The notes below the pieces were generated by a model. That model was not told the origin of the DNA. It was given only the letters and a program-made list of their open reading frames with translations, and did no database searches. A stretch of 28,299 bases of DNA from Parcubacteria group bacterium CG2_30_45_37 (GTDB lineage Bacteria > Patescibacteriota > Patescibacteriia > Patescibacteriales > GWC2-42-12), in assembly GCA_001873515.1 (NCBI GenBank), contig MNZH01000004.1, forward strand, positions 1 to 28,299. The letters run 5' to 3'. Of the stretch, positions 2,302 to 5,733 are shown in pieces. Position 1 is the first letter of the stretch. Each line of letters opens with the position of its first letter. The translations under genes and the position numbers were made by a program.

Positions 2302-3393
2302 TTATCTGGCCAGCACATAATTCATGCCGCCAAGATTTTTGACGATTCCTTTCATTTCCATAAGGGTAAGTGTACTATTTATAATCGAGGTGTCAAGTTT
2401 TGTCAAATTAACGAGCTCGTCAACATGCACCGGCTCGTAAGACAATTGTTTAAAAATTAATTCTTCTTCCGGCGATTCCGGAATAATCTTTTTATTTTCA
2501 ATGTAGTTGGCCGCGTCCATTAAATTAAGGTTTTCAATAATGTCTTGGGCGCGGGTAACCGGCTTTGCGCCCATTTTTATCAAGCGGTTGGCGCCCTCGG
2601 AAACCGGGGAGTAAATACTGCCGGGCACGGCGAAAACTTCGCGGTTTTGCTCTAAGGCATGCATAGCTGTAATGAGCGCGCCTGATTTTTCACCGGCCTC
2701 AATTACCAAAGTGGCGCTGGACAGGCCGGAAATCAGCCGATTTCTTTGGGGAAAGTGGTGTTTTAGGGGCAGAGTGCCAATCGGATATTCAGACATAACT
2801 AATCCGTCCGAGTTAATAATTTTGTCCGCCAGATAGCGGTTCTGCGCCGGATAAATATTTTGCCGATCCAGGCCAGAACCCAAAACCGCGATAGCCTTGC
2901 CGCCGGCTTCCAGCGCGATCGAGTGCGCCAAAGCGTCTATACCTAAAGCCAGACCGCTTACAATGGTTAAATTATTAAACGCCAACTCACGGACAAGTTT
3001 TTCCGTTACCTGCCGGCCGTAAGAGCTGAATTTTCTGGTGCCCACTACTGCCAGGAGAAAGCCGCTAAAAGCCTCAATTTGCCCCTGATAGTATAAGATA
3101 AAAGGCGGAGCGTAAATTTGTTTTAAGAGTTTAGGATAAGCCGGATCGTCAATGGTTAAGACTTTGATTTTTTCCCTGGCCAAATCTTCAATTAATTTAT
3201 CCGGCTCAATTTGCCGTCTAAAAATTATAAATTCCTCGGCGGTTTTTTCATCAAGGCCGGCCGCCAGCATTTCTTTGGCCGTGGCGCTAAAAGCGCTGGC
3301 CATATCGGGGAAATAGTTTTTTAGCCTTTTAAATTTAACCGGGCCGAATTTATAAAACTGGCTAAAAGCCAGCCAGTATTTTAGGTCGTCCAT
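2302..3393 (-). CDS. dprA: DNA-processing protein DprA/Smf
   Basis: AVVGTRK, IVSGLALGID, VLGSG, FPQRNRLISGLS, VIEAGEKSGALIT, EVFAVPG and a C-terminal winged helix; classical dprA-topA synteny. Confidence 0.96.
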   Translation of the reverse strand: MDDLKYWLAFSQFYKFGPVKFKRLKNYFPDMASAFSATAKEMLAAGLDEKTAEEFIIFRRQIEPDKLIEDLAREKIKVLTIDDPAYPKLLKQIYAPPFILYYQGQIEAFSGFLLAVVGTRKFSSYGRQVTEKLVRELAFNNLTIVSGLALGIDALAHSIALEAGGKAIAVLGSGLDRQNIYPAQNRYLADKIINSDGLVMSEYPIGTLPLKHHFPQRNRLISGLSSATLVIEAGEKSGALITAMHALEQNREVFAVPGSIYSPVSEGANRLIKMGAKPVTRAQDIIENLNLMDAANYIENKKIIPESPEEELIFKQLSYEPVHVDELVNLTKLDTSIINSTLTLMEMKGIVKNLGGMNYVLAR

Positions 3394-3448
3394 AATTAAT
3401 CATTTAAAATTAGCTATTTTAAATAATATCCGACAAGGCGCATTGGCC

Positions 3449-3477
3449 TTGACAGAGAAAAAATAATATGATAATAT
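3449..3477 (+). promoter_or_regulatory. sigma70-type promoter (P1), divergent from dprA
   Basis: TTGACA (3449-3454), 17 nt spacer, TG-n-TAATAT (extended -10, 3472-3477); no protein-coding ORF downstream on + strand. Confidence 0.7.
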
Positions 3478-3484
3478 ATTATAT

Positions 3485-3617
3485 TAAATTTAGTAGTCAT
3501 CGTAGCGTTCAGGCTGTTACTTGCTTAAGGGCATAATTTATTAGATAGTTTTCCTCCTTGACTATTTATGAATCATGAATTCCTTCTAAGCAAGTAGCAT
3601 CTTGGACGCTATTTTTT
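3485..3617 (+). ncRNA. Putative structured small RNA 1 (long rod, internal bubble, UUCCUCCUU apical loop); family unknown
   Basis: 3503-3531 pairs with 3582-3611 (28 bp, 4 G-U, one mismatch, one bulge); 9 bp apical stem 3542-3550/3560-3568; followed by T6 (3612-3617); promoter P1 upstream. Confidence 0.65.
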
Positions 3618-3644
3618 GACAATTGTTGTTTTTAATAATAACAT
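3616..3644 (+). promoter_or_regulatory. sigma70-type promoter (P2)
   Basis: TTGACA (3616-3621), 17 nt spacer, TAACAT (3639-3644). Confidence 0.6.
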
Positions 3645-3650
3645 ATTTTA

Positions 3651-3813
3651 TACAGACCTGATAGTATTCGCGATTCTGCCTAGGAGTGATGAAGGTTAAA
3701 CCTCCCTCCTGGTTTGGCCGGAGTCTTAAATTGGAATTATTTCCGCGCTTCTAGGTGGAATTGCGGATATTATCTTATAAAAAAGAGAGTTGGCTCAAGC
3801 CAACTCTCTTTTT
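3651..3813 (+). ncRNA. Putative structured small RNA 2 (29 bp uninterrupted duplex topped by a multi-hairpin head); family unknown
   Basis: 3660-3688 pairs with 3746-3774 with no mismatch and 7 G-U pairs, which would be A-C mismatches on the minus strand; promoter P2 upstream, terminator 3780-3813 downstream. Confidence 0.7.
3780..3813. terminator. Bidirectional intrinsic terminator overlapping the pth stop codon
   Basis: Perfect 15 bp inverted repeat AAAAAGAGAGTTGGC-TCAA-GCCAACTCTCTTTTT with A/T tracts on both sides. Confidence 0.9.
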
Positions 3814-4301
3814 ATTTGAGTAATTAATTTTTTAATTGCTTTCAGTTCGCTGACGCCAAATTTTTGCAAAACAAATTTGTCAGCCGGAATTTTTTCTAAA
3901 GTCGGGGTTTTAATGCCGATTCTCAAGCGCTTAAAATTTTTGGTATTAAGCCGGTCGATGATGGACTGGACGCCCTTATGGCCGGCGCTTCTGGAAGCAA
4001 CCGAAAATTTATACTTGCCCAAAGGAATATCCAGGTCATCGTGAATGACGGTCAAATTTTCCGGTTGTAATTTATAGTACGCCAGCGCGGCCGCGATCGC
4101 CTGACCGGAGTCGTTCATGAAAGTTTGCGGTTTCAGTAAGATAAAATCAGCGTTTTTGGCGACCGCGGCTTTAAATTTTTTACTATTTGCCCACTTCAGA
4201 CCAAATTCTTCGGCCAAAGCGTCAAGGGCCATAAAGCCGACATTATGGCGAGTGGTTTCATGTTGTTGCCCAGGGTTCCCTAGGCCGGCGATGATAGGCA
4301 T
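3795..4301 (-). CDS. pth: Peptidyl-tRNA hydrolase
   Basis: GLGNPG, TRHNVGF, KPQTFMNDSG, VIHDDLD, RLRIGI motifs. Confidence 0.96.
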   Translation of the reverse strand: MPIIAGLGNPGQQHETTRHNVGFMALDALAEEFGLKWANSKKFKAAVAKNADFILLKPQTFMNDSGQAIAAALAYYKLQPENLTVIHDDLDIPLGKYKFSVASRSAGHKGVQSIIDRLNTKNFKRLRIGIKTPTLEKIPADKFVLQKFGVSELKAIKKLITQIKRELA

Positions 4302-4302
4302 A

Positions 4303-5733
4303 TTAGTTTCGGCGCAGTCCAGGCACGTTTTTATTTTTGGCTATTTTAATGGTAAGCGGCGTGCCCAGAAAGCCGTAAGTTTCACGCAGGCGGTTTTCCA
4401 GAAAGCGGACATAGGAGAAGTGCAAGTCTTCTTTAACGCCGATTTTAAGTTCGAAAATCGGCGGATTGTCGCCGACTTGAGTGAATTCGCGCAGGCGCGG
4501 ATGCCTAACGCCCCGACCTTTGGCCGGGCGGTGAATTTTAACCACGCGGGCCAGGAAATGCGCCAGTTGCGAATCGCTTAACTCTAGCTTTCTTTGTTCG
4601 CCAATTTGTAAAATTAAATCAAAGATTTTTTTTACTTTCTCTCCGGTTTCAGCGGAGATGAATTGGATGGGCGCGAATTTAGCGAAGGGCAGCTTGCCGT
4701 AAATGTAGTCGGCGTATTTTTTAGTGTCGCGCTTGGCGATTTTATCCCATTTGTTGGCGATAAAGATAAAGCTTTTTTTGGCGTTGACGATTTCTTCAAC
4801 CAGCTTGGCGTCTTGATGGGTGAGCGGCTGGCTGATGTCCATAACTAATAAGGCCAGGTCGCTTTTCCCCAGAGCGGCTAATGATTTGGCAATGCCGAAT
4901 TTTTCCAAACCTTTAGTTTTGGCGCCGCGCCGGGAAATACCGGCCGTATCAATCAGTTTGATGGGCTGGTCCTGATAAGTTATGTCCGTATGTTGGGGTT
5001 CGCGGGTGGTATGCGGAATTGGGCTCGTGATTACCCGCTTATAACCTAAAAGCGAATTTAACAGGCTGGATTTGCCCACGTTGGGCTGGCCGATGATGGC
5101 AACTCGCAACTCGCAGCTCGCAGCTCGCAACTCTTTTTTATCCTCGTCTTTTTTTTGAGTTGCGAGTTGCGAGTTGCGAGTTATGAGTTTTTTGACGATA
5201 ACATCCAATAAATCGCCGGTGCCAGAGCCATTGGCCGCGGAAACCGGCTGGGGGTCGCCGAAGGATAATTTATAGAACTCGGACAAGTTCAAGCGGTCTT
5301 TGGGCGAGTCAACCTTGTTAACCGCTAAAATAATTTTTTTTGGATTAACGCTTTTTTTGATTAAGAGCGCCATTTGCCGGTCAGCCGGCAGCAAGCCGGT
5401 CTTATTGTCCGCTAAAAATATAACCAAGTCAGCCGCTTTTAAATATTTTTTAGCCTGCGCCTGCACTTTATCAGTAATGTCGCTTTCGGCTTCAGCCTGG
5501 CCGAGCAGATGTTTTAAGTCAATAATGCCGCCGGTGTCCACCAATTCAAATTCTCGGCCAAGCCAAACCACCCGGCCAAAATTGCTGTCGCGGGTCGTGC
5601 CGGCGATGTCGGATACCAAGGCCTGGCGTTTTTCCACTAAGCAATTAAACAACGTTGATTTGCCCACGTTGGTCCGACCGAAAATAACGACGAGGGGGAG
5701 GAGGGTATTTTCTTTTTCTTTTGTGTCTGTCAT
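4303..5733 (-). CDS. der: Ribosome biogenesis GTPase Der/EngA
   Basis: Two tandem G domains (GRTNVGKST/DTGG/NKVD and GQPNVGKSS/DTAG/NKWD) and a KH-like C-terminus. Confidence 0.97.
   Translation of the reverse strand: MTDTKEKENTLLPLVVIFGRTNVGKSTLFNCLVEKRQALVSDIAGTTRDSNFGRVVWLGREFELVDTGGIIDLKHLLGQAEAESDITDKVQAQAKKYLKAADLVIFLADNKTGLLPADRQMALLIKKSVNPKKIILAVNKVDSPKDRLNLSEFYKLSFGDPQPVSAANGSGTGDLLDVIVKKLITRNSQLATQKKDEDKKELRAASCELRVAIIGQPNVGKSSLLNSLLGYKRVITSPIPHTTREPQHTDITYQDQPIKLIDTAGISRRGAKTKGLEKFGIAKSLAALGKSDLALLVMDISQPLTHQDAKLVEEIVNAKKSFIFIANKWDKIAKRDTKKYADYIYGKLPFAKFAPIQFISAETGEKVKKIFDLILQIGEQRKLELSDSQLAHFLARVVKIHRPAKGRGVRHPRLREFTQVGDNPPIFELKIGVKEDLHFSYVRFLENRLRETYGFLGTPLTIKIAKNKNVPGLRRN
5099..5189. 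repeat. Inverted pair of heptamer tandem arrays inside der
   Basis: (GCARCTC)x5 at 5099-5133 and (GAGTTGC)x3+GAGTTAT+GAGTT at 5157-5189, encoding part of the GD1-GD2 linker. Confidence 0.9.

Follow-up and report, generated by a model that had tools for sequence, protein, structure and literature searches.

A candidate family of small RNA genes with anti-Shine-Dalgarno-like loops beside pth in Patescibacteria

In this study, we describe two small RNA (sRNA) genes, RNA1 and RNA2, situated in tandem on the + strand between dprA and pth of Parcubacteria group bacterium CG2_30_45_37, in a stretch of 28,299 nucleotides (nt) that was analyzed as a whole (contig MNZH01000004.1, positions 1 to 28,299; hereafter the window). 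We are highly confident that these are two probably paralogous sRNA genes, RNA1 of ~130 nt and RNA2 of ~125-160 nt, each with its own strong sigma-70 promoter and terminator, and we are just as confident that they represent an undescribed family which is conserved across the Patescibacteria and mostly found beside pth. Both have the hallmarks of sRNA genes: each carries a conserved promoter and terminator of its own and no conserved reading frame, from which we infer that it is transcribed, and each exposes in its hairpin loops an unpaired, conserved stretch rich in C and U that is the complement of GGAGG.

Structurally, each gene is built around a long duplex. In RNA1 (3503-3531/3582-3611) this comprises 28 pairs with two single-base interruptions, while the 29 pairs of RNA2 are unbroken; G-U pairs account for 4 and 7 of these, respectively, or 11 of 57. 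The RNA1 rod of 112 nt is almost wholly paired, with interruptions of 1-4 nt and without an open central bubble. RNA2, of 115 nt, forms one helix of 29 base pairs (bp) leading to a three-way junction with hairpins of 9 bp and 5 bp. The apical loops of 8-13 nt are C/U-rich and remain unpaired in both minimum free energy and consensus folds. Folding was far more favorable on the + strand, at -48.9 kcal/mol (z -8.3) for RNA1 (3485-3617) and -81.4 kcal/mol (z -10.5) for RNA2 with its terminator (3651-3813), than on the - strand, where the corresponding values were -28.2 kcal/mol (z -3.0) and -55.7 kcal/mol (z -5.6). In line with this, our covariance model R1 scored RNA1 at 114 bits on the + strand and 36 bits on the - strand, and model R2 scored RNA2 at 114.6 bits on the + strand. 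The G-U pairs are kept as G-U or G-C and would become A-C if read from the - strand, which speaks against a - strand feature. RNA1 ends in UAUUUUUU, a U tract that is probably its terminator.

Evidence for selection on these folds comes from relatives. A BLAST search with the dprA-pth gap against 60 relatives recovered both elements at 70-91% identity, in the same order and orientation, and RNA1 and RNA2 lie between dprA and pth in nearly all related loci. In MAFFT alignments of 19 RNA1 and 28 RNA2 sequences, which were not fitted to the structure, the predicted partners could pair in 95.8% (RNA1) and 95.5% (RNA2) of cells, compared with 35-53% when the partners were slid by 1-3 columns. Compensatory change was found at 22 of 35 pairs in RNA1 and 26 of 39 pairs in RNA2, and none of 500 shuffles matched the observed values on any measure.

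Within the order, the covariance models identified one copy per genome, R1 in 85 and R2 in 82 of 151 genomes, with scores of 110-125 bits on the + strand and about 30-50 bits on the opposite strand at the same places. Where both genes are present, RNA1 is invariably directly upstream of RNA2. One family (f4) has RNA1 only (11/11 against 0/11 for RNA2), another (f7) has RNA2 only (9/9 against 0/9 for RNA1), and one genus (g8) has lost the RNA1 rod and retained its promoter. The signals for transcription are conserved as well. At 22 or more of 28 loci, RNA1 is preceded by TTGAC(A/T) and a TG-extended -10 box of the TAATAT type. A TAACAT box located 10-20 nt 5′ of the RNA2 rod is kept across the order, the full TTGACA-N17-TAACAT promoter of RNA2 is kept in family-level relatives, and a hairpin with a U tract follows RNA2 in most relatives. 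In two relatives the rods are separated by just 11 and 30 nt, and because of these short gaps RNA2 is probably co-transcribed with RNA1 there.

On the strength of this covariation, the conserved promoters and terminators, the single copy and the higher + strand model scores, RNA1 and RNA2 are + strand RNA genes; neither a DNA palindrome nor a mobile inverted repeat accounts for them. A first-pass annotation of the same DNA had come to this view from promoter-like elements at 3449 and 3616, each followed by a long duplex and then by a T tract or terminator, and from the share of G-U pairs. Both TTGACA-N17 boxes (10/12 matches each), the positions and pair counts of the two duplexes, the G-U count and the terminators (the U tract after RNA1; a 15 bp hairpin and U tract after RNA2) proved correct. 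Folding of both strands and covariation in relatives, which it had named as checks, both came out for the + strand; so did the gap between + strand scores and those of about 35 bits on the - strand, and the single copy and the conservation of promoters and terminators in relatives agree with its call of two separately promoted genes rather than a mobile repeat.

The family extends beyond the order. Using a more inclusive model (R3), for which 36 sequences were combined, we identified RNA2-like genes, 119-146 nt long, in 59 of the 151 genomes sampled across the class; among genomes from other classes of the phylum, 12 of 150 had such genes. They are mostly convergent with pth and often adjoin dprA or topA, and in other orders a TTGACA promoter precedes the RNA2-like gene in 10 of the 11 loci read. 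Distant members retain a closing helix of 25-30 bp, the three-way junction, a short helix P2 and the loop CCCUCCU. In members from other orders and classes, a conserved GAAA on the 5′ side and AGUA on the 3′ side separate the stem of the loop hairpin from a 3 bp helix that covaries; the window's own order has UGAA / GGAG at this position. GAAA opposite AGUA corresponds to what we take, from the sequence only, to be the loop-E / bulged-G consensus, a typical protein-binding module. Second copies, in tandem or nearby, occur in other lineages too (G174, G237). We also observed that the site just 3′ of RNA2 is variable: in one genus an open reading frame (ORF) of ~105 amino acids (aa), equipped with a strong GAGGAGG box, is inserted in the same orientation as the RNA, the ORFs found at this spot in other lineages are different ones led by a Shine-Dalgarno (SD) sequence, and in three loci/lineages a tRNA gene follows in the same direction.

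RNA1 and RNA2 are probably paralogues that arose by tandem duplication in the ancestor of the order, as suggested by their common helix motif, their common loop and the cross-matches of their models. In sequence, they have in common the loop core CCUCCU, the helix UUGCYUARG / CUUCUARGCA and the ends AUAG...CUAU; within RNA1, UUGC and GCAAG are invariant among the 19 sequences. Model R1 on RNA2 loci, and R2 on RNA1 loci, gave 26-33 bits. The initial impression that the two share architecture and size but not sequence is not supported by the loop, the helix and the model cross-matches, although a plain pairwise alignment was not significant (z 1.6).

The host genome, of 0.62 Mb and 82% complete, derives from groundwater/aquifer metagenomes, and each of the two genes is present in it as a single copy. 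The gap that houses them spans 400 nt (3394-3794), between dprA (2302-3393) and pth (3795-4301), both on the - strand, with topA past dprA and der past pth. The features of the locus are collected in Table 1. The -35 box of the RNA2 promoter overlaps the U tract of RNA1. Since the stop codon of pth (3795-3797) lies inside the terminator hairpin downstream of RNA2, this hairpin can end both convergent transcripts, RNA2 on the + strand and pth on the - strand. At the other end of the gap, P1 stands back to back with the sole promoter-like site for dprA on the - strand (-35 at 3500-3495, -10 at 3478-3471); given this overlap and the strength of P1, interference with dprA transcription is possible.

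Table 1. Predicted features of the RNA1-RNA2 locus, in positions of the window
Feature	Positions	Strand	Description
P1, promoter of RNA1	3449-3477	+	TTGACA-N17-TAATAT, TG-extended; scan 10/12 matches
RNA1 transcript, ends inferred from promoter and U tract	3485-3618	+	leader ~17 nt, rod 3502-3613, U tract 3611-3618
RNA1 helix half common to RNA2, UUGCUUAAGG	3521-3530	+	pairs with CUUCUAAGCA at 3584-3593
RNA1 apical loop core UUCCUCCUU	3551-3559	+	matches CCUCCUU of the 16S 3′ tail; 19/19 aligned homologues
P2, promoter of RNA2	3616-3644	+	TTGACA-N17-TAACAT; scan 10/12 matches
RNA2, 5′ end inferred	3651-3774	+	closing helix 3660-3688/3746-3774, 29 bp, and three-way junction
RNA2 counterpart of common helix, CUGCCUAGGA	3676-3685	+	pairs with CUUCUAGGUG at 3748-3757
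RNA2 hairpins	A 3694-3719, B 3732-3745	+	three-way junction
RNA2 hairpin A loop core CCCUCCU	3704-3710	+	identical to anti-SD
Bidirectional intrinsic terminator	3780-3813	both	15 bp hairpin between A tract and U tract

That there is no + strand RNA at this locus, and that a DNA palindrome, a - strand feature (an SD sequence or CsrA-type GGA loops), a small protein or a divergent signal recognition particle (SRP) RNA lies behind the conservation, is in our view extremely improbable. The - strand loops do read AAGGAGGAA and AGGAGGG, but the conserved G-U pairs would be A-C on that strand and its scores are 70-90 bits lower. With no - strand start codon at SD distance and these much weaker model scores, an SD sequence or small ORF on the - strand was rejected. 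RNA2 does hold a frame of 21-22 codons, but 6 of 28 relatives lack it and in others it is shifted or cut short, and a coding reading was rejected on these grounds, as was a repeat or mobile element on that of the single copy. As to SRP RNA, the models RF00169 and RF01854 had no match in the region, in the genome or in 26 relatives (0/26), a finding that would leave room for a divergent form; but with Ffh and FtsY absent there is nothing for such an RNA to bind. In a survey that took in this genome and a further 146 from Patescibacteria, the majority with a completeness of 90% or more, the Ffh M domain (SRP_SPB) was found in 0 of 26 genomes and an SRP54-type GTPase (Ffh, FtsY) in 0 of 5 and 0 of 121, while the control, SecY, was present in 5 of 5. 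The present genome has no DTAGR/TKLDG signature, and a tblastn search of it with E. coli Ffh was empty, the TrmD control returning 7e-59. We therefore rejected SRP RNA, given the empty models, the missing Ffh and FtsY and loops that are C/U-rich rather than GNRA. If true, loss of the SRP across Patescibacteria would be remarkable.

Nor do the two RNAs correspond to a known family, in agreement with the first-pass annotation. No Rfam 15 family matched at gathering score anywhere in the window, and a permissive search (E up to 10, 3380-3830) returned terminator-driven noise only (STnc370, GibS and miRNA models), far below gathering. ARAGORN detected no tRNA or tmRNA, and targeted full-text searches of the literature on noncoding RNA, SRP RNA or SD sequences in the candidate phyla radiation (CPR)/Patescibacteria yielded no description of the family. 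A riboswitch had been discounted for want of a + strand gene to control, and the ORF table of the window indeed lists no + strand ORF downstream of RNA1 and RNA2.

The same annotation had offered a minimal 6S-like RNA as one option, with a stem-bubble-stem fold for RNA1, and here our results differ. The 6S model RF00013 had no match in 3380-3830 (E up to 10) or in the whole genome (E up to 1), while control genomes responded; RNA1 has short interruptions in place of a bubble, and RNA2 has a three-way junction and no second long helix. A 6S identity was rejected for these reasons. Also very unlikely, in our assessment, is a decoy that works like 6S, in which the sigma-70 holoenzyme would be sequestered by a long helix and a junction that resemble an open promoter. 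There is a likeness, in that 6S too is a rod-shaped RNA encoded by a single gene copy, driven by a strong sigma-70 promoter and apparently abundant; the long closing helix and the wide conservation would suit such a role, the RNA2 junction with its 3′-side hairpin loosely resembles the 6S bubble, and the lack of any RF00013 match in the genome leaves the niche open. Both RNAs are, however, shorter (112-145 nt, compared with ~180 nt for 6S, whose rods span about 150-200 nt), match no 6S model even at E up to 10 and have no open bubble between two long helices. What is conserved in them is a hairpin loop and not the strands of a bubble. Moreover, because some families keep RNA1 only and others RNA2 only, the common denominator is the shared loop, not the junction.

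This apical loop, UUCCUCCUU in RNA1 (19/19) and CCCUCCU in RNA2, is the only invariant single-stranded stretch and offers the main clue to function; the first-pass annotation did not mention it. In the 28 RNA2 sequences, C55, C58 and U60 are invariant and the other loop positions are at least 90% conserved, and homologues of other orders and classes retain a CCUCC loop. GAUCACCUCCUUUCU forms the end of the 16S gene in three family members and in 20 of the 21 other genomes examined that carry the RNA. Since CCUCCUU (RNA1) and CCUCCU (RNA2) are identical to letters of this tail in relatives, the loops copy the anti-SD core of 16S rRNA. They differ from it in that the motif here is displayed by the closed loop of a hairpin in a separate small RNA, rather than at a free 3′ end on the 30S platform, and in that the upstream GAUCA of the tail is not copied in RNA1 or RNA2. 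Previous work found about half of Parcubacteria 16S genes to be without a detectable anti-SD motif (PMC9297842).

The host makes little use of the corresponding signal. GGAG or GAGG lies upstream of 5.5% of 508 crudely called genes, a first pass having given 4.8% against a background of 3.3%, and ORFs led by GGAGG amount to ~2%. On 22 E. coli genes, the same crude script returned 18% for GGAG/GAGG, and 36% versus 6.9% with AGGA included. Textbook AAGGAGG boxes are few, and mostly precede small ORFs, often Cys-rich or secreted (contigs C36, C38, C44, C54, C63 and C70), which may be accessory or foreign genes. At the 3′ boundary of 16S itself, CCUCCUUUCUAGGGAG (or UAAGGAG) was found in 21 of 24 genomes read (family, class and other classes). 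In most genomes UAGGGAG/UAAGGAG directly follows the mature 16S end (…CACCUCCUUUCU), where, in the precursor, it could pair back onto the anti-SD. In one RNA-bearing genome, G242, the 16S tail is mutated to CACCUCAUUU and there is no trailer of the UAGGGAG type.

As to function, we tentatively favor a trans-acting role, and consider it quite possible that the loops pair with GGAGG-type sequences in competition with the 16S tail. Under this proposal, the loop would be a seed for pairing in trans with GGAGG-type SD-like sequences. The genome has few mRNAs led by an SD and otherwise makes no use of the signal; it is for these mRNAs that the loop would rival the 16S tail, such that their translation would be lowered or timed. 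The long helix would confer resistance to nucleases and hold the loop exposed, and two copies with near-consensus promoters could provide the high dose required of a ribosome competitor. Invariance of the loop while the stems covary is consistent with a seed, as are its identity to the 16S tail of relatives and a genome that is SD-poor, yet has a small set of ORFs with textbook AAGGAGG boxes. It is well established that tandem sibling sRNAs can use C/U-rich loop seeds to occlude ribosome binding sites, as do LhrC, RsaE/RoxS, CcsR/alpha-r14 and csRNAs.

A close parallel is with the cuckoo or alpha-r14 RNAs (CcsR1-4 of Rhodobacter, NfeR1 of rhizobia). These are likewise small RNAs, often tandem siblings, transcribed from a promoter per copy or as short arrays, and their loops show an anti-SD motif of the CCUCCUCCC type which pairs with ribosome binding sites. 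No homology was detected (Rfam, E up to 10), and the alpha-r14 RNAs are hairpins of ~10 bp in Alphaproteobacteria with SD-using genomes, in contrast to the closing helix of 28-29 bp, the three-way junction of RNA2, the synteny with pth across a phylum and the SD-poor host described here. LhrC1-5 of Listeria, RsaE/RoxS of Firmicutes and the streptococcal csRNAs are also sibling or tandem sRNAs with C/U-rich loop seeds (UCCC, CCCC). Their seeds are both anti-SD and anti-AUG, and they repress by covering the SD sequence, with no need for Hfq. They are unrelated to RNA1 and RNA2 in sequence and structure, and are controlled by stress or as part of a regulon and limited to a genus or family, whereas the present family is conserved to class or phylum level in a housekeeping-like manner. 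None of these named anti-SD-seed families was among the Rfam matches at E up to 10.

Several observations weigh against pairing in trans as the function. A search of the host's own genome with the loop complement gave no convincing start-site target. The best extended match is on the - strand of contig C69 (near 3499), where UAGUCAAGGAGGAAAA complements the RNA1 loop and the sequence flanking it on the 3′ side perfectly over 16 nt. It is unlikely to have arisen by chance (roughly 5e-4 by a naive estimate), but lies inside an ORF of 660 aa and not at a start codon. The SD sequence of rpsU, GAGGUG, pairs better with the 16S tail than with either loop. No RNA runs containing the window DNA are listed, while DNA runs, from groundwater and aquifers, are many; expression, transcript ends and abundance are thus deduced. 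A perfect helix of 28-29 bp is atypical of base-pairing sRNAs and would be a substrate for RNase III. Phylum-deep conservation and fixed synteny resemble a housekeeping RNA more than a regulator of a few accessory mRNAs and, taken with the loop-E-like module, are just as compatible with a housekeeping role. Finally, a protein partner would explain an invariant loop just as well as an RNA target.

Such a partner is the premise of a protein decoy, in which the loop would imitate the unpaired 3′ tail of 16S rRNA, and a protein that normally binds this tail would be titrated or delivered by the RNA; candidates include bS21, bS18, bS6, bS1, a 3′-end processing nuclease and an rRNA-cleaving toxin. 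We consider this explanation unlikely, though several findings suit it. The loop is invariant phylum-wide while the rest drifts, the loop hairpin of other orders is seated on the loop-E-like GAAA / AGUA internal loop, the genes are conserved as single copies in a housekeeping-like manner, and the genome retains its anti-SD despite being SD-poor, as in Bacteroidia. In that group, the anti-SD is protein-bound, being sequestered by bS21, bS18 and bS6. On the other hand, no partner protein was identified here, and Era, the best-known anti-SD-binding protein, was not found. No Era with a KH domain was present in 5 family genomes, the era model matching only the two GTPase domains of Der (4594-5691 in the window, and in four relatives); Era was rejected on this basis as the loop-binding partner in this lineage. 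This result agrees with a reported class-specific loss of era (PMC12641178).

The absence of Era, along with a CPR complement of only about half the usual ribosome biogenesis factors (PMC12641178), would also suit a helper in ribosome biogenesis, whose loop pairs with the UAGGGAG that follows the mature 16S 3′ end and thereby frees or masks the tail during 3′-end maturation. The trailer motif at the 16S boundary in 21 of 24 genomes, with which the loop can pair through CUCCU or CUCCCU, and the deep, housekeeping-like conservation of the RNAs are compatible with this role. Nevertheless, we consider it distinctly unlikely. In Bacillus, too, the 16S end is followed by a similar AAGGA, which means that the trailer is not specific to this phylum; its variants AGGGAG and AAGGAG show no co-variation with the loop; and G242 retains the RNA without an intact anti-SD or trailer motif. 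Broader still is the idea that the RNA is no regulator but a core component associated with the ribosome, carrying the anti-SD as a separate molecule and docking either on the small subunit or on a protein that binds the anti-SD; we regard this as a highly improbable account. We are equally doubtful of what it would then do, namely supply or withhold SD recognition in trans and so decide which of the rare, largely accessory SD-led mRNAs are translated in a phylum whose backbone genes have abandoned SD, or stand in for 30S maturation factors that are missing, Era among them.

Much of bacterial diversity belongs to Patescibacteria, whose genomes are very small, and to our knowledge almost no regulatory RNAs have been described in them. 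As the family described here keeps its position at every level from order to phylum, and has neither an entry in Rfam 15 nor a published description that we could find, it is a candidate core RNA of Patescibacteria. Its invariant loop copies the sequence on which the ribosome docks mRNA, in genomes that scarcely use that signal, and so bears on translation initiation and its control. RNA1 and RNA2 offer a concrete molecule to examine in the few cultivated Patescibacteria, and the covariance models built here would allow annotation of these genes in thousands of metagenome-assembled genomes.

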